From: a virus | Lineage: Duplodnaviria; Heunggongvirae; Uroviricota; Caudoviricetes | Strand: one strand, 5' to 3' | IMG/VR virus record: IMGVR_UViG_3300045988_156427 | DNA: 64,000 bases | Shown: one piece after another, positions 10,431 through 54,393 of the stretch | How positions within the stretch are numbered: the first letter of the stretch is position 1 | Layout: each line of letters starts with the position of its first letter | Notes under the pieces: generated by a model | What the model saw: the letters and a program-made list of their open reading frames with translations, nothing else | Told to the model about the DNA's origin: nothing | Database searches by the model: none | Made by a program: the position numbers and the translations under genes

Positions 10431-10631
10431 TTATCTGCTGCCCGGCATTCTCTGTTTAAGCACAACCATTTCCTGACGGCATAACACAGCAATAGCGGTC
10501 CTGACTCCAATTTGCTTACCAACCAGGTATTGCTTTACCTTGCGGCGACTCACGCCATCAAGAAGCATCTTTAACGCTTCACGGGACAATTTGTTGTATT
10601 TGCGTGCCATTAATCTACTCCGCAGAACCAT
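10431..10631 (-). CDS. small basic protein, possible DNA-binding
   Basis: ORF track; likely starts at internal [14 protein letters not shown]. Confidence 0.3.
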
Positions 10632-10995
10632 ACAATCTACGTAACGTGTCGGCGACAGAAGATACAGATATCTCGCCAGTCGCAGCGCCTACAGTAAGGT
10701 CTGCCAGTTCAGGTGAATCAAATACCTGCACCCCGTTACGGCGTAGAAATAACAGCGCACTGTTTAGCGCGGTACGCTTATTGGCATCATTGAATATATG
10801 CCCTCTCGCTGTAGCCACCAGGTAGGTGGCGGAGACTTCGAAAAGGTCGGTGATCTCTTCGTAGGCAACTCTGGCCTGAACTCTCCCGATAATGGCCTCT
10901 GCCCTACCCGGATCAGACATTCCCGGCAGGCCGCCGTAGCGGCTTATATTCGCATCATGAAGCGCAATAAGTTCTTCCGGTGATATATGCCTCAT
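10615..10995 (-). CDS. doc: Doc toxin (Fic fold)
   Basis: 126 aa starting [22 protein letters not shown]; matches P1 Doc as I recall it. Confidence 0.95.
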
Positions 10996-11216
10996 TATCG
11001 GTTAACCAGTTCCTTGTTGGTGGAGTCCAGGGTGTCAAACAGGGATGCAAATTCAGCATCCAGCGCCGCTTTTTTGTAGGCTTCGAAAGTAGCCTTGCTG
11101 ACAATTACTGCTGGCTCACGGCCTCTGCGGGTGATTTCAACCTCTTCCCCGGCCTCAACATTGTTGAGCACTTCAGAAAGGTTGCCGCGCGCGGTACGGA
11201 AGTTAATGGATTGCAT
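10995..11216 (-). CDS. phd: Phd antitoxin
   Basis: Internal start [32 protein letters not shown], 73 aa; overlaps doc start. Confidence 0.9.
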
Positions 11217-33589: not shown

Positions 33590-34345
33590 GTGGACCTGTA
33601 GATTGGGATATGAACCCGTTACAGGAGAATGCTCTTACCTGTTACGTGCTCCGTTTCGTGGAGCTAACGGCGGGTGATCGGGCCGCACCAGACTGGACTT
33701 ATTTCAGCGTTATGCTCATGCCAGAGAATCAAACTGTGATGGTCGGTGCTGAACTCCGACACAGGGTTGTAGCAAGCCCCGCAAAGCGCGCACTACTGTA
33801 GTTGCGGCACATCAGCCTGTGCATTCACCACAATGTTGAGAACACTGGTTGTCACGCTGCAACGCAACATTTATTCGTAGATTGGGATATGACCCCGTTA
33901 CGCCAGTGTTCTCAACGTTGTAGTGCCGGTTACGGTTCCGGCCAGGCCTCTTCCTCAACGGGGTGTTCTCCATACGGACTACCGTTTATTGGTCGTTCCT
34001 GCGGTTTATGTTGTGAAGCCAGATGCTTATCTTCTGGTTGCTTCAAAGAGCTGCACTTCATCACAACGGTAAGAGCACTCGATGCATTTAAGCCAAGCCC
34101 CATAAGGGAGAATGCCCTTACCTGTTGTGTTGTGATGACCGGTGCTGATCTCCGGCTTGCGGTTATTTCAGACTCTCACGGGCGTTTAATTGCCCCGCCG
34201 AACAGCTCTTTTCCGCAATAGCTGCAATGTCTTTCGCGCATCAGCCTGCGCATTCATCACAACGGTAAGGGTACTTCGTAGGGATTCGAACCCTCTGCCA
34301 AGCTCGGCGATCTCCGACGTCGCAAAATACCCTTACCTGTTGTGC
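33590..34345. repeat. non-coding repeat cluster between the TerB-like gene and the tRNA pair
   Basis: GATTGGGATATGA(A/C)CCCGTTAC at 33601 and 33881; CCTTACCTGTTGTG-like units at about 33631, 34110, 34331 and 34771; inverted repeat GTTGAGAACACTGG / CCAGTGTTCTCAAC. Confidence 0.5.
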
Positions 34346-34421
34346 TGGTGCCGATTAACGGACTCGAACCGCTGACATCCTGCTTACAAGGCAGGCGCTC
34401 TACCAACTGAGCTAAACCGGC
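34346..34421 (-). tRNA. tRNA-Thr (anticodon TGT)
   Basis: Hand-folded GCCGGTT...CTTGTAA...GGTTCGAGTCC...ACCA. Confidence 0.85.
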
Positions 34422-34423
34422 AT

Positions 34424-34499
34424 TGGCGATGGTGGATGGATTTGAACCATCGACCCGTTGATTAACAGTCAACCGCTCTAACCGCTGAGCTACACCATC
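34424..34499 (-). tRNA. tRNA-Asn (anticodon GTT)
   Basis: Hand-folded GATGGTG...CTGTTAA...GGTTCAAATCC...GCCA; 2 nt from tRNA-Thr. Confidence 0.85.
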
Positions 34500-48277: not shown

Positions 48278-49093
48278 ATGAGCAAAAACTTTTTTCAATC
48301 CGGGGCATTTTTGGGGAATGGACTGTCTCGTTTCGCTTTGAACTCTGATCCTGTGCAGCTGATGGAGTCTGCCCGAGCAAGCGCTGAACCGCCAACAGAT
48401 CCGGTTATTAATAATAATCCGGAACCGGCGGCACAGACTAACGATAACGTTCCATCTGCCCAGGCTCCTGAGCAAATCCTGGAAGGGAAAGACGGTAAAG
48501 AATGGACCGTCGAACAGGCGCACCAGATGATTCTGGAAGCTGCAAATCGAAGTGCTATGCAAAATGCGTTGAGTGATGCGGCCGACGCCGTTTTCGCCTG
48601 GGCTGATAGCGGTGATCTGACTTTCGACTCCCTTGATGGTTTCGTTCAGGCTATCGCTGGTATCTCTGATGACGACGACTCCGAAGTTACAGAAGAACAG
48701 GACGATGCCTATAACGAAGCATGGGCAAATGTTGCTGACTTCCTCGCAGCATGCGGTGTAGATGATGACCTGATCGAAGCACTGGCTGACGATGAAGACG
48801 ACGACGCAGCTGCTGATGTTGGTGCCTCTATCGCTGGTTTAGATAGCGACGACCGCGACGAACTGGAAGCGGCGTTTGTTGTTGCTGGCACTTCTGATGA
48901 AATGCTGACTGAAGCATTTAAGAAGGTTGTTCGTAACGGTGAGATCAAACTCATCCGTAAACGCCTGCGTAAAAAACGTCTGACTGCGGCTCAAAAATCG
49001 GCGCTGAAAAAAGCGCGTCGAAAAGCCCAGACCGGCGCGGCAAAACTTGCCCGCAAAAAGTCAATGAAACTGCGCCGTAAGCGCCTTGGCTAA
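48278..49093 (+). CDS. acidic protein with basic C-terminal tail
   Basis: ORF track; Asp-rich core, Lys/Arg-rich end. Confidence 0.4.
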   Translation: MSKNFFQSGAFLGNGLSRFALNSDPVQLMESARASAEPPTDPVINNNPEPAAQTNDNVPSAQAPEQILEGKDGKEWTVEQAHQMILEAANRSAMQNALSDAADAVFAWADSGDLTFDSLDGFVQAIAGISDDDDSEVTEEQDDAYNEAWANVADFLAACGVDDDLIEALADDEDDDAAADVGASIAGLDSDDRDELEAAFVVAGTSDEMLTEAFKKVVRNGEIKLIRKRLRKKRLTAAQKSALKKARRKAQTGAAKLARKKSMKLRRKRLG

Positions 49094-49128
49094 AGGAGGA
49101 GGCCGGAGAACTCCGGCCTTTAACTTGA

Positions 49129-49710
49129 ATGGCACCTATTCCTTATGGGGTTTACAGCCAGGCTGACGGTGTATCGCCATATCTGAAAGTTACTTTAACG
49201 AACTCTCAGTACCAGGTTACCGGATATATCAGCCAGGGAGCGGCAATGAACATGGCCCAGAATTGGGAAGCGCCGTTTACCGGTATGTCCATGGGATCTG
49301 TTGCTGGTGCCTTCAGTGGTTTTGCGCAGGTTGGTACTGAAACAACGTCGGTTGCCCGTTGGAACAGCTTAATGGTTTGGGAAGGGGGAACACCGCCGAC
49401 TTTCACGCTGCCAGTAACTTTCATCGCTTTGTTTGACCCATTCACGGAGGTTTCAGGAGCTATCGCCGCATTGTCAGCGATGATTAGCCCGGAACTTAAA
49501 GATGCCAGTATTGGTGGTCGAATCCCGGAGCGTGTGACGCTAAACATTGGTCGCCGGATCAACATCATTGATGTCGCTATCCAGGACATAAGTTTCGATC
49601 TCGATGCGCCCAGGGACAGCAATGGACATTTCCTGAAAAACACCGTCAACCTCCAGTTGACCGGTTCTTCGATATATAACAGCTCCGATATTGTTCGGGC
49701 GTTCCAGTAA
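49129..49710 (+). CDS. hypothetical structural protein
   Basis: ORF track. Confidence 0.4.
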   Translation: MAPIPYGVYSQADGVSPYLKVTLTNSQYQVTGYISQGAAMNMAQNWEAPFTGMSMGSVAGAFSGFAQVGTETTSVARWNSLMVWEGGTPPTFTLPVTFIALFDPFTEVSGAIAALSAMISPELKDASIGGRIPERVTLNIGRRINIIDVAIQDISFDLDAPRDSNGHFLKNTVNLQLTGSSIYNSSDIVRAFQ

Positions 49711-49721
49711 AAGGATTTTAT

Positions 49722-50231
49722 ATGGGGCACAATAACACTAAGGGAAACCGTAAATTTATTAAGGGCCGCTATACTGCCAACGCGGCCAAAGGCGAACGAC
49801 TGGTATCTTCTGAATTCCAGCTCACTTTTGCAGGCCATGAAGATATCAGCGTACTGGTTCGCACGTCGCAAATTCCTGAAATGACCCGCGAGGATGTGGA
49901 GGACTATGGTCCGAATGGTGTGAAGTTCAACCAGCACGGTCCAATTCGAAACTCTGGGGAAATCCAGGTCCAGTGCGTGGAGACTATCGAAGGCGATATT
50001 CTTCAGTTCATTAAAGATCGCATTGCGGCGAAGGACTATGTTGATATCACGATGGCTGCTACCCCTGAATCCAAATCTTCCGGGGTTAACGCTGTGACAA
50101 AAGCTGCTACAACAATTGAAATGTTGGACTGCAAAATCTACAGTGATGCAATCGACTTTAGTACCGAAGATGTGACTGCTGCTGTGCGCCCGTCACTTCG
50201 TATCGTCTACAACTGGATTGATTGGAATTAA
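49722..50231 (+). CDS. hypothetical structural protein
   Basis: ORF track. Confidence 0.4.
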   Translation: MGHNNTKGNRKFIKGRYTANAAKGERLVSSEFQLTFAGHEDISVLVRTSQIPEMTREDVEDYGPNGVKFNQHGPIRNSGEIQVQCVETIEGDILQFIKDRIAAKDYVDITMAATPESKSSGVNAVTKAATTIEMLDCKIYSDAIDFSTEDVTAAVRPSLRIVYNWIDWN

Positions 50232-50250
50232 GAGTCATCCCTTGTATTTT

Positions 50251-50277
50251 AAAGCTCCTTCGGGAGCTTTTTTATTT
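50251..50277 (+). terminator. rho-independent terminator, probably bidirectional
   Basis: AAAGCTCCTTCGGGAGCTTTTTTATTT. Confidence 0.8.
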
Positions 50278-50347
50278 GGAGAGGAAAGGGTGCATTGAGG
50301 ATACCTGACACACGAAGAGTGGCAGGGATCTCTCCCCGCCAGGTCTC

Positions 50348-50503
50348 TTACCTTTCAGATTCGTAGGCTGTGAAGACAGTGACCTCCGTCTGGCCGGTTC
50401 GGATTCGTACCTCGCAGAGGTCTTTCCTCGTTACCAGTGCCGTCACAATGACGGTTAAACAGATGACGATCAGAGCGATTAATATCGCTTTTTGCTGCTT
50501 CAT
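50348..50503 (-). CDS. Hok/Gef-family type I toxin
   Basis: Hand translation MKQQKAILIALIVICLTVIVTALVTRKDLCEVRIRTGQTEVTVFTAYESER (51 aa); AAGGAGAAG SD; not in ORF track. Confidence 0.85.
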   Translation of the reverse strand: MKQQKAILIALIVICLTVIVTALVTRKDLCEVRIRTGQTEVTVFTAYESER

Positions 50504-50561
50504 AGCCTGCTTCTCCTTGACCTTTTGGTCGGTAAGAGGCTAATCTACGTATGCTAAGCAT
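50355..50561 (-). CDS. mok-like overlapping reading frame upstream of and across the hok-like gene
   Basis: Track ORF, 68 aa, different frame from the toxin, as in hok/mok/sok loci. Confidence 0.4.
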   Translation of the reverse strand: MLSIRRLASYRPKGQGEAGYEAAKSDINRSDRHLFNRHCDGTGNEERPLRGTNPNRPDGGHCLHSLRI

Positions 50562-50684
50562 AGATATGGCCTCAGATTAATGTTAAGCGTCTTGCAGGAC
50601 GCGTAATGTTATCTGGGGCTTTCTTCTATCTGCTTTTCGGGTAATGCCTGAAGCAGATAGCCTCAAGCACCCGCAACGATTGTA

Positions 50685-50930
50685 TCAATGTCTGGCTTTT
50701 TTTCTATAGAAATCACCTGGAAGGGTGAATATCCACATCAGAAGAAATGTTGCAGCAAACATGATCCCTAATGGCCAGACCGCGCCAAAGAAAATCCATA
50801 CTAAGATCTCCTCTGCTTGTTCTTTGCGGTCGATATCGACAAGCATTTTTCGGCTGATCATGTATACACAGAAGCCAATACAAACATATCCTGCAAAAGC
50901 GATCGCTAACTGTAAAAAATCAGATTGCAT
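50685..50930 (-). CDS. small membrane protein
   Basis: Track ORF 50685..51011 trimmed to internal Met downstream of the operator. Confidence 0.35.
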   Translation of the reverse strand: MQSDFLQLAIAFAGYVCIGFCVYMISRKMLVDIDRKEQAEEILVWIFFGAVWPLGIMFAATFLLMWIFTLPGDFYRKKARH

Positions 50931-50959
50931 CTCCGACCTCAAACTGAAAACGCCAGGTG

Positions 50960-50976
50960 ACTCCAGATTAGAGCAA
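50960..50976 (-). promoter_or_regulatory. C1 operator-like core
   Basis: Reverse complement ATTGCTCTAATCTGGAG; first 11 positions match. Confidence 0.35.
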
Positions 50977-50980
50977 TCTA

Positions 50981-51826
50981 TCACCCTCTGAATCCTGCCG
51001 GTATACCCCATTGTTCGTTATCTTTATTTTTGGCTAAAACCGCATTAAGAGCTTCGTTTACCGTCATGCAATGCGGCAGATTATCGAAGTTTGATATCCC
51101 GCCAATATCAGGAGAACGCTTGTCCTTCAGGTAAGCATATTTCCGCGCTGCCGCCTCTACTTTCTGCTTGAACTCATGTTTTTGAGCGCGTTTTTTGGAT
51201 AACCGCAGATTGTCAGCCTTTGCTTTTGCCTCAGCGATCCATGAAGTCAATTTTTTGAGTCTGGTCGTTCCGGCACCGCCGGAAACTGATCTTTTTATTT
51301 TTTTAACTTGTGACTTCTTATTCTTTATTGCCACGTCATCCTGACAGGGGGAGGGGGTATCATTTTGACATGGGGGTGTGGATAAAAAATTAAATAAAGC
51401 CAATGTCTTAGCGAGAACAGCTTTAACCTTGGTTGCCGCTGAAGAGATCTTTAATTTGCTTTCAATCAGCGCATTTTTGGCTTGTTGTGCGAAGGCCAAA
51501 AAGGATGGTGTAAACCGGTACAGGTTAGCGCGACGTTCACGGTGATCGCCGATAACAATCTCTACAGACAGAATTCCTTTGTTTACAGCTTCACGGAATG
51601 CACGAACGACGGTTGATTGGCTATAACCAGTTTCTGCCGCGATCAGGCGGTGAGGCTTGTGAATGAAGTATTCACTAGTTGTTGCCGCGAGATTTGCACA
51701 TTGCGACAGGATATGCCCGGCGCTACGGGATAGACCGGAGTGTGTTACAAAGCAGGCCAATTCATAGCCAGAAAAAGTAAAATCGCTCATCGTTATACAG
51801 CTCAGGAAAGTGACTTTAGCCAGCAT
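50981..51826 (-). CDS. repL: RepL lytic replicon initiator
   Basis: Contains MSDFTFSGYELACFVTHSGLSRSAGHIL as I recall P1 RepL; downstream of kilA. Confidence 0.8.
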   Translation of the reverse strand: MLAKVTFLSCITMSDFTFSGYELACFVTHSGLSRSAGHILSQCANLAATTSEYFIHKPHRLIAAETGYSQSTVVRAFREAVNKGILSVEIVIGDHRERRANLYRFTPSFLAFAQQAKNALIESKLKISSAATKVKAVLAKTLALFNFLSTPPCQNDTPSPCQDDVAIKNKKSQVKKIKRSVSGGAGTTRLKKLTSWIAEAKAKADNLRLSKKRAQKHEFKQKVEAAARKYAYLKDKRSPDIGGISNFDNLPHCMTVNEALNAVLAKNKDNEQWGIPAGFRG

Positions 51827-51855
51827 TACAATGCTAGTGGTTCTTACTACGTCTG

Positions 51856-52656
51856 TTAGCGCGTTGCCGCGACAGGTACCAGCACACCAGCATCAAGCAA
51901 TCGCTTCATCAGCCACTGCTGACCTTTGCCGGTTATACGAGTCGTGAAAGAAATCCTGCTTCCATTGCTTGTATCGATCACGGTTTCTTTAAGGGTGAAA
52001 TACCCACGGGATATGTATTCTTGTTTGGGGACGTTCCTGCGTTCACCGGTTGCGATCAGAATTCCGTTATCACGCAACCAGGTGAAGAGATAGTTTTGGC
52101 CCAGGCCGAGCACTTTGGCATAGTTGCCGATTAGAACTCCGCTGGCGGTAGCAACGCGTTCGGCGAATTCGACTTTAGGTGCATCCATAAGCATTTTTTG
52201 CTCCAGCCGTTGCTTTTGCTCTGCCAGGTCGGCAGCCAAACGGAGAGCTTCAGGGAGACTCTGCGGAATAGCAGGTTGTAATCTTCCGGCTCGATAGTCG
52301 ATAAATGTCTGGTTTACCTTCAGCCGAAACGCGGGAGAAATCCAGCCTGCGTACTCCACAGCGAGCAATTCATGGGCAAAAGTGCCGCCGCCACGGCCTT
52401 CGAAAGAAACTATGCAATTCTGCATAGTTTCTTTTTCAAGCTCTTCGATGAGCTGTTTGGCTGACAGCGTTCTTAGCCATTGAGCTGGCGCTTTATGGGC
52501 ACCGAGTCCGCTCGCTCTGTGTAGAGCATTAAGGTTGTAACGGCCAGCGCGGTCGGTCGTAATTTCAACACCACAAATAACAGGCAGAGTGGTTGAAGGA
52601 TCGACATTTTGATGAAGGTTTGATATATTCATATCCGCATTGAATGTTTGTTGCAT
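51856..52656 (-). CDS. kilA: KilA
   Basis: 266 aa; C-terminal half paralogous to ant C-terminus (QSLPEALRLAADLAEQK repeated in both). Confidence 0.75.
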   Translation of the reverse strand: MQQTFNADMNISNLHQNVDPSTTLPVICGVEITTDRAGRYNLNALHRASGLGAHKAPAQWLRTLSAKQLIEELEKETMQNCIVSFEGRGGGTFAHELLAVEYAGWISPAFRLKVNQTFIDYRAGRLQPAIPQSLPEALRLAADLAEQKQRLEQKMLMDAPKVEFAERVATASGVLIGNYAKVLGLGQNYLFTWLRDNGILIATGERRNVPKQEYISRGYFTLKETVIDTSNGSRISFTTRITGKGQQWLMKRLLDAGVLVPVAATR

Positions 52657-54084: not shown

Positions 54085-54330
54085 TACGGCCTCGTAAGTT
54101 GATAAACAACCTGCGACCCGCTGCTAAACAGGTGGCAGGACGTGACGGGGTTAGCAGACTGGCACTTACGAAACCAGCAGGCCGAAGCCTCCCCATCACG
54201 CCCCACCATAATTCGGGCGTAACGTGGTTTACGGACACAAAAATACCGCAATATCGGAAATCTGCGGTTGTCCGCGTAAGTATTCAGGCTGCTAAACCCG
54301 GTCGCAGAATTTGCTACGACGGCGGAACTA
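54085..54330 (-). ncRNA. c4: region expected to encode the c4 antisense repressor RNA
   Basis: Non-coding leader between operator and icd with repeated GTTTAGCAGC-like and complementary CTGCTAAC elements; boundaries not determined. Confidence 0.3.
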
Positions 54331-54393
54331 TAAGCCTGAACGATTAAAAGGTCAATATGATGCGAAAAGATAGCATTCGCGACTTAAAAATAC

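Follow-up and report, generated by a model that had tools for sequence, protein, structure and literature searches.

Does the short region between bplB and repL in this 64,000-nucleotide stretch of DNA (the window) hold an intact hok/sok toxin–antitoxin locus, and what would such a locus do in an element that has phd/doc as well? The window is a P1-like phage-plasmid. The presence of phd and doc, of three tRNA genes and of the C4 antisense RNA with its a1/b1 targets confirmed a P1-type immunity and addiction backbone. The phd and doc genes of the window are 100% and 99% identical to the P1 probes used; these near-perfect matches validate the probes. All features that we located are listed in Table 1.

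Table 1. Features of the bplB–repL region and of the P1-type backbone in the window, with position, strand and the basis of each assignment
Feature	Position	Strand	Basis or remark
doc	10618-10995	-	Match to P1 probe
phd	10998-11216	-	Match to P1 probe
Three tRNA genes	32646-34499	-	Found in the window
bplB	49722-50231	+	Left flank of the locus
Backbone hairpin terminator (bplB terminator), AAAGCTCCTTCGGGAGCTTT	50251-50270	+ only	Terminator scan
Segment of 693 bp in place of P1 pmgF-rlfB-rlfA (1,826 bp)	50274-50966		blastn against NC_005856
hok mRNA body, ~387 nt (predicted ends)	50286-50672	-	MFE fold and covariation
hok/mok/sok cassette proper, 388 bp	50288-50675	-	Homology to other hok loci confined to this range
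fbi-like element at the 3' end, CCUCAAUGCACCC, complement of the 5' end	50288-50300	-	MFE fold and alignment
3'-UTR hairpin, GGCGGGGAGAGAUCCCUGCC	50321-50340	-	Helix 17, covariation
dcb-like box, GGUAAGAG, across the hok stop codon	50345-50352	-	Fold and alignment
hok toxin gene, 51 aa	50348-50503	-	Pfam PF01848, PHROG 251, RefSeq annotation
mok, 68 codons, in the +1 frame with respect to hok	50355-50561	-	ORF list
Candidate Sok promoter, TTGACC, 18-nt spacer, TAATCT	50517-50546	+	Read by eye
ucb-like box, GCCUCUUAC	50532-50540	-	Pairs with 50345-50352 in full-length and 3'-trimmed folds
Predicted Sok RNA, ~71 nt	50553-50623	+	Coordinates from annotated SokW of 933W, by alignment
Leader hairpin (10-bp inverted repeat)	50625-50660	-	First hairpin of RF01794
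tac-like 5' end, GGGUGCUUGAGG	50661-50672	-	Pairs with 50288-50300 in MFE fold
Candidate hok/mok promoter, TAGAAA, 16-nt spacer, TACAAT, upstream TG	50679-50706	-	Consensus scan
81-aa ORF (orf81)	50685-50930	-	PHROG 3772 ('unknown function'), 182 bits full-length
repL	50981-51826	-	Right flank of the locus
C4 antisense RNA with a1/b1 targets	54128-54333	-	Found in the window

The initial annotation had translated a 51-aa protein by hand from the minus strand and likened it to Gef/Hok toxins. We found exactly the quoted sequence. It scores 76.3 bits with the Pfam family HOK_GEF (PF01848; cutoff 22, E = 1.3e-21) and covers positions 2 to 42 of the 42 positions of the profile; against PHROG 251 ('MokW-like host killing') it scores 108.8 bits. 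The Hok/Gef identity is thereby secured, and chance is excluded by these scores as well as by the Rfam match of the leader (E = 4e-27). The protein reads ILIALIVICLTVIVTALV followed by TRKDLCEV, and each of the 31 aligned homologues keeps this core. With its some 50 aa, a predicted N-terminal hydrophobic helix and an RKDLCEV core that includes the Cys, it has the make-up of a Hok/Gef family member. The Shine–Dalgarno sequence, described earlier as strong, is AGGAG at 50513-50517, 9 nt ahead of the hok ATG. By the sequence and the ORF list, no frameshift, IS element or truncation is present in the locus.

In an identical plasmid, RefSeq/PGAP names the gene hokD, 'type I toxin-antitoxin system toxin' (WP_001352007.1). 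This name expresses similarity only (94% to chromosomal HokD), because the protein scores below the cutoffs of the NCBIfam Hok models (NF007279, Hok subfamily, 50.2 vs 73; NF007290, HokA, 37.5 vs 89) and does not qualify by these HMMs as a HokD equivalog.

The codon for Tyr47 is TAC followed by G (50362-50365, minus strand), and all 31 aligned hok loci have UACGAA without variation. A-to-I editing by TadA, whose motif is TACG, turns Tyr into Cys at the corresponding position of hokC, hokD and hokE (PMC5630033, PMC12214031). The second Cys of the toxin may depend on RNA editing at Tyr47. It is the motif that suggests this, because the local fold around the TACG (25 nt, 0 kcal/mol) contains no stable loop of the sort that would make a TadA substrate.

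The 68-aa mok-like frame that had been reported to overlap hok in another register is present in the ORF list, and it is preceded by a Shine–Dalgarno sequence of its own, GAGG at 50570-50573, 8 nt upstream of the mok ATG at 50559-50561. As judged from the sequence, this is the upstream overlapping mok of R1-type loci, and its translational coupling to hok is putative. None of the 31 aligned loci departs from the mok ATG, but the frame that it opens is variable: in 20 loci it shares the frame of hok and encodes an N-terminally extended Hok of 68 to 70 aa, in 6 (including the window) it is in the +1 frame, and in the other 5 it is a 19-codon ORF. This combination agrees with the accepted view that what counts is translation of mok as such and not the Mok protein.

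A consensus scan yielded a candidate promoter for hok and mok. The predicted transcription start, around G50672, coincides with position 1 of the Rfam model RF01794, and the position of the −10 hexamer is conserved in 933W. RF01794 matched 50498-50672, the 175 nt that lead up to the hok start codon and take it in, with 114.9 bits (gathering score 59; E = 4e-27), over its full length (model positions 1 to 157 of 157) and on the hok-sense strand. The model is titled 'sok antitoxin' and stops at the hok AUG. Because its hok-sense match ends there, RF01794 is a model of the hok mRNA leader; taken at face value, its annotation would put 'sok' on the wrong strand, since Sok is predicted on the plus strand.

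The 387-nt hok RNA has an MFE of −154.5 kcal/mol (z = −7.6 vs shuffles). In the predicted fold its first 12 nt pair with a complementary element at the 3' end, and this modelled pairing is the tac–fbi lock of the hok family; the homology of the cassette to other loci stops exactly at the fbi-like element. A ucb-like and a dcb-like box pair as well, the latter lying across the hok stop codon. Upon removal of 40 nt from the 3' end, the 5' end folded into a local hairpin and the ucb–dcb helix persisted, so that the trimmed fold did not show the activating tac–ucb switch. By eye, 3 + 5 base pairs can be formed between tac and ucb, the kinetic pathway being a matter that thermodynamic prediction cannot settle. 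When the 52 nt at the start of the mRNA (50621-50672, minus strand) are folded on their own, they favour a hairpin in which nt 1 to 13 pair with nt 19 to 34 (−19.9 kcal/mol, z = −3.4) over the stem of the 10-bp inverted repeat. A metastable 5' hairpin has been described for nascent R1 hok transcripts, and the hairpin of the 52-nt fragment resembles it.

Two flanking structures had been assigned to the locus. One, a perfect 10-bp inverted repeat, does exist (CTATCTGCTT/AAGCAGATAG at 50651-50660 and 50625-50634), but it is no flank: it makes up nt 13 to 48 of the hok mRNA leader, as a hairpin within the transcript. As a recombination or transposon end it was ruled out, for it is intratranscript, forms the first hairpin of RF01794 and covaries. 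The other, a bidirectional terminator, had to be given up. The terminator scan found an intrinsic terminator on the plus strand only, and the hairpin belongs to bplB and was not imported, because P1-backbone homology extends to 50273; being inside that homology, it was also ruled out as a part of the cassette. On the hok strand, the same hairpin AAAGCTCCTTCGGGAGCTTT precedes UUUAAAAU, a poor U tract, and the scan of that strand gave no convincing terminator belonging to the 3' end of the hok mRNA itself. Judging from the sequence, hok transcripts may extend to the backbone hairpin or use it.

The GC-rich hairpin of the 3'-UTR, GGCGGGGAGAGATCCCTGCC (50321-50340, minus strand), contains a 10-bp IS186B target, GGATCTCTCC. 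Insertion of IS186B into the P1-like plasmid pSvP1 duplicated this very target (PMC6906374). The insertion in pSvP1 would part fbi from the hok mRNA. In K-12, too, IS186 presumably lies just downstream of hok genes.

A Sok-like antisense RNA had been guessed on the plus strand around 50530-50620, and both a candidate promoter and a predicted RNA were located close to that range. The promoter was read by eye; both of its hexamer positions are conserved in relatives, and it is absent from the sites reported by the consensus promoter scan. The coordinates of the RNA were transferred from the annotated SokW of 933W. It is predicted to consist of a single-stranded 5' tail, a long hairpin and then CUUUCUUCU (−34.4 kcal/mol, z = −6.0), and it is complementary to both the Shine–Dalgarno sequence and the ATG of mok. 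At the sequence level, the locus has what R1-type systems have, a predicted cis-encoded antisense Sok with its own candidate promoter, directed against the mok initiation region.

Two P1-like phages, RCS47 (FO818745) and SJ46 (KU760857), match only ~50541-50675 and ~50541-50652, respectively. Since they kept the third that encodes the leader and Sok and lost the hok ORF, we regard them as carrying orphan sok remnants. An IS605-family element lies in the cassette region of RCS47.

The predicted structure was then compared with that of relatives. We gathered 46 related loci, one genome per species, and aligned 29 full-length units with 933W and the window; the resulting 31 loci span seven named genera, and the MFE structure of the window served as the reference. 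Standard pairs were retained at 86.8% over the 31 loci vs 38–43% in slid controls, and 38 pairs had changed on both sides vs 9–19 in the controls. No shuffle reached the observed covariation score. The tac–fbi helix (12 pairs) is 89.5% paired in the 31 loci, and its U4-A pair is replaced by C-G, a compensatory change, in 7 of them; the Photorhabdus tac and fbi read GGGCGCUUGAGA...UCUCAAGCGCCC vs GGGUGCUUGAGG...CCUCAAUGCACCC here. The leader hairpin (helix 2) is 90.3% paired and likewise compensated, with CTGCTT/AAGCAG here and CTGCC/GGCAG in 933W. For the 3'-UTR hairpin (helix 17), we counted 87.8% paired positions and 4 compensatory pairs. The ucb–dcb helix (helix 8) is 89.9% paired and mostly invariant; covariation adds little in this case because most of its pairs never vary. 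Fold and alignment thus agree on the long-range tac–fbi pairing and on the ucb–dcb pairing in the inactive mRNA, both of which belong to the R1-type scheme. All sequence and structure elements that define a hok/sok locus are present, intact and evolutionarily constrained.

Two of the loci gathered come from very short contigs that probably represent assembly contamination. One (L013; JQCU01000506, 275 bp, labelled Acinetobacter idrijaensis) carries this enterobacterial hok locus at 98% identity and includes P1 backbone; the other (L024; NZ_JPLE01000323, 431 bp, labelled Xanthomonas pisi) carries it at 88%.

How is the locus placed in the P1-like element? Comparison of the window with NC_005856 by blastn gave homology at 48500-50273 (96.6%) and 50967-52500 (98.6%) and nothing between, where the window has its 693-bp segment in place of pmgF-rlfB-rlfA. 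The limits of the cassette proper within this segment correspond almost exactly to the transcription unit. Two chromosomal loci of E. coli (L006 and L014) share these limits, and 107 phage records match the cassette. The replaced region is one of eight hypervariable regions in P1-like phage-plasmids (PMC9603915), and a CRISPRi screen across the P1 genome scored pmgF, rlfB and rlfA all as non-essential (PMC10695390). Canonical P1, with its phd/doc, had been taken to have no hok locus, and this was correct. At this position the P1 reference NC_005856 has pmgF, rlfB and rlfA and no hok, and the full P1 gene table contains no hok entry and lists phd/doc as the sole toxin–antitoxin system; for the rest of P1, the absence of hok is read from the gene table and from the single matching place in each P1 record. 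As phd/doc is also present in the window (10618-11216), the earlier description of the locus as an extra addiction-type module is apt.

The remainder of the segment is largely taken up by orf81, which came in with hok in the same swap and lies outside the hok cassette. Its stop codon overlaps the −10 region of hok. The ORF can be extended to 51011, since a mechanical ORF call gives 108 aa with a start within the 3' end of repL. Searches of Pfam and NCBIfam gave no matches for orf81, PHROG 3772 being the only one, and the product is annotated as hypothetical protein WP_001369095.1. By eye, it looks hydrophobic.

We also considered C1 repressor control through a retained Orlf (Op55) operator. 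Around the junction (50960-50985) no match was found at up to 3 mismatches, as compared with 16 C1-operator-like sites elsewhere in the window, where 0.3 are expected by chance. In P1, Orlf lies just downstream of repL (L002 3795-3811) and straddles the right breakpoint; it was not retained. Because Orlf is unmatched at up to 3 mismatches, orf81 and hok are without a local C1 operator.

The exact arrangement bplB-hok-orf81-repL, at 80% or more of the query, occurs in 262 PLSDB plasmids, with an identity of at least 99% in most of them; pPE15-92K (NZ_CP041630) is an example of an identical plasmid. Among 5,426 complete genomes of E. coli, 235 have the arrangement. The canonical pmgF-rlfB-rlfA arrangement of P1 is full-length in only 99 PLSDB records. 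A Kluyvera contig is 98.5% identical over the bplB-hok part, its divergence setting in within orf81. Occurrence of the locus in the P1 reference had been named as a finding that would speak against the proposal of an added module. To the letter this did not happen, as the reference is without the locus; in spirit it did, since the variant is the commoner one in databases (262 vs 99 in PLSDB).

The locus had also been called hidden, with an implication of novelty that does not hold. RefSeq has it as hokD, GenBank records titled 'Punavirus P1' and 'Escherichia phage P1' carry the cassette (with the label MokW in one record), and Venturini et al. 2019 recorded the substitution as '2 orfs including antibacterial toxin' (PMC6906374). 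That remark is all that we found in the literature; no paper naming hok/sok in P1-like phage-plasmids turned up. A survey of 2025–26 describes more than 44,000 Hok homologues, enriched in prophages and large plasmids (10.1101/2025.08.07.668861). A hok/sok cassette in a P1-like element is already known and is ordinary, because the same module has been annotated in hundreds of sequenced plasmids.

Among characterised systems, hokW/mokW/sokW of 933W (AF125520) comes close, with 87.3% nucleotide identity over 50288-50675, identical boundaries and an annotated SokW RNA. The 51-aa toxin, tac, fbi, the leader hairpin, the position of Sok and the mok ATG all correspond. Owing to a difference of 1 nt, mokW shares the frame of hokW and yields an extended Hok of 70 aa, whereas mok of the window is in the +1 frame and has 68 aa, which is the classical R1-style overlap. 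The −35 hexamer of Sok is TTGACC here and TTGCC(T) in 933W. The replicons differ as well: 933W is an integrated lambdoid prophage, the window a P1-like plasmid prophage. Other lambdoid phages (Rac, Tritos and the PA series) have the same cassette.

The K-12 gene hokD (relF, Qin prophage) encodes a protein with 47 of 50 aligned residues identical (94%), including Cys30 and Tyr47 in the same TACG context; this near-perfect match, obtained twice, validates the HokD probe. The K-12 hokD locus is reported to be without components of the canonical system (PMC12214031), all of which the window locus has. The likeness to hok/sok (parB) of R1 lies in the anatomy, namely a toxin of the Hok family, a mok that overlaps its gene out of frame, a predicted Sok antisense to the mok start region, the tac–fbi closure and the ucb/dcb boxes (GCCUCUUAC/GUAAGAG). 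The proteins are only ~42% identical, as measured with an R1 Hok probe. The cassette also differs from R1 in lacking a dedicated terminator, its 3' end being predicted to borrow the backbone hairpin. With P1 phd/doc it presumably shares the outcome, in that cells without the plasmid prophage after its loss are killed or arrested. Sequence and mechanism are unrelated, phd/doc being a type II protein–protein system with a Fic-family toxin and a labile protein antitoxin.

On this evidence, the locus is very probably an intact type I hok/mok/sok cassette of the HokD/HokW lineage that sits in the known bplB–repL variable region and acts as R1 hok/sok does. The R1 mechanism is reportedly the work of Gerdes, Franch, Gultyaev and colleagues, and we infer the following steps from that paradigm by way of the conserved anatomy. 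A weak constitutive promoter would produce a stable hok mRNA of ~390 nt. With tac locked onto fbi, this mRNA would be neither translated nor bound by Sok. Slow trimming from the 3' end would strip fbi, and the mRNA would refold so that the mok start region opens. As long as the element is present, abundant and short-lived Sok (~71 nt) would pair with this region and block translation of mok. The coupled translation of hok would then be blocked as well, and the duplex with Sok would be marked for RNase III. Should the plasmid prophage be lost, or host transcription cease, as upon infection by a lytic phage, Sok would decay first; mok and hok would then be translated, and the 51-aa Hok would depolarise the inner membrane and kill the cell. 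In a single-copy plasmid prophage, the cassette would thus be a second module for post-segregational killing beside phd/doc, with exclusion of other phages as a possible side benefit.

Could that side benefit be the main one? The intact cassette might be kept chiefly for anti-phage abortive infection or exclusion, stabilisation being secondary because phd/doc and parAB provide it. A superinfecting lytic phage would stop host transcription, Sok would decay, and Hok would kill the cell before the invader finishes. Pecota and Wood are said to have found in 1996 that R1 hok/sok excludes T4, which counts in favour of such a role, as does the location of the closest relatives of the cassette in integrated lambdoid and Stx prophages, which have no plasmid-like segregation; phd/doc already being in the window points the same way. 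Against this, hok is not enriched near defence systems (preprint 10.1101/2025.08.07.668861). Since the two roles are not mutually exclusive, they differ in emphasis and not in mechanism; that defence should come first is doubtful to us, though well worth keeping in mind.

The cassette might instead be a silent passenger, structurally complete but unable to kill, which is carried along in a recombination hot spot. For HokD, the closest K-12 relative, and for most chromosomal hok loci, inactivity or an inability to mediate post-segregational killing has been reported (10.1101/2025.08.07.668861, PMC5630033, PMC12214031). Position 47 of the encoded toxin is Tyr instead of Cys, and editing of hokD is reported to be low, ~6% (PMC12214031); the region is among the eight that are hypervariable in P1-like phage-plasmids (PMC9603915); and RCS47 and SJ46 have lost the hok ORF, with only the leader left. 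The K-12 loci, however, are inactive through IS insertions or the loss of regulatory parts, none of which is seen here: the predicted promoter, tac, mok, Sok, ucb/dcb and fbi are all in place. In addition, representative Hok homologues were toxic whatever their location (preprint 10.1101/2025.08.07.668861), and in PLSDB the hok variant outnumbers the reference P1 arrangement by 262 to 99. Because the lesions reported for inactive K-12 loci are all absent, we consider a silent passenger unlikely.

We give slightly less credence still to a cassette that is wired into the phage programme, so that host killing or exclusion of competitors would be coupled to the lysis–lysogeny state. The cassette follows directly on the C1-controlled kilA-repL lytic operon, and the swap removed the Orlf operator together with rlfAB. 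Upon induction, read-through transcripts with a 5' extension would bury tac and could shift the timing of Hok. If true, such a coupling could explain why natural isolates have the variant more often than the arrangement of laboratory P1. Finally, a chance ORF with a spurious resemblance to Hok, for which small size only can be cited, is refuted by the matches to Pfam (E = 1.3e-21) and Rfam (E = 4e-27), by the synteny of the regulatory elements and by covariation across genera, and we regard it as practically out of the question.

The preferred reading, an intact hok/sok cassette that works in the R1 manner, has small discovery value, since hok/sok is one of the best-studied toxin–antitoxin systems. 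The locus is a convenient natural case for the role of hok/sok in a phage-plasmid, as the survey of Hok homologues leaves the role in prophages open. Wild P1-like phage-plasmids carry antibiotic-resistance genes, and the combination of hok/sok and phd/doc is commoner in them than the set of genes that laboratory P1 has at this position. Its prevalence bears on the persistence of phage-plasmids and on attempts at curing them.
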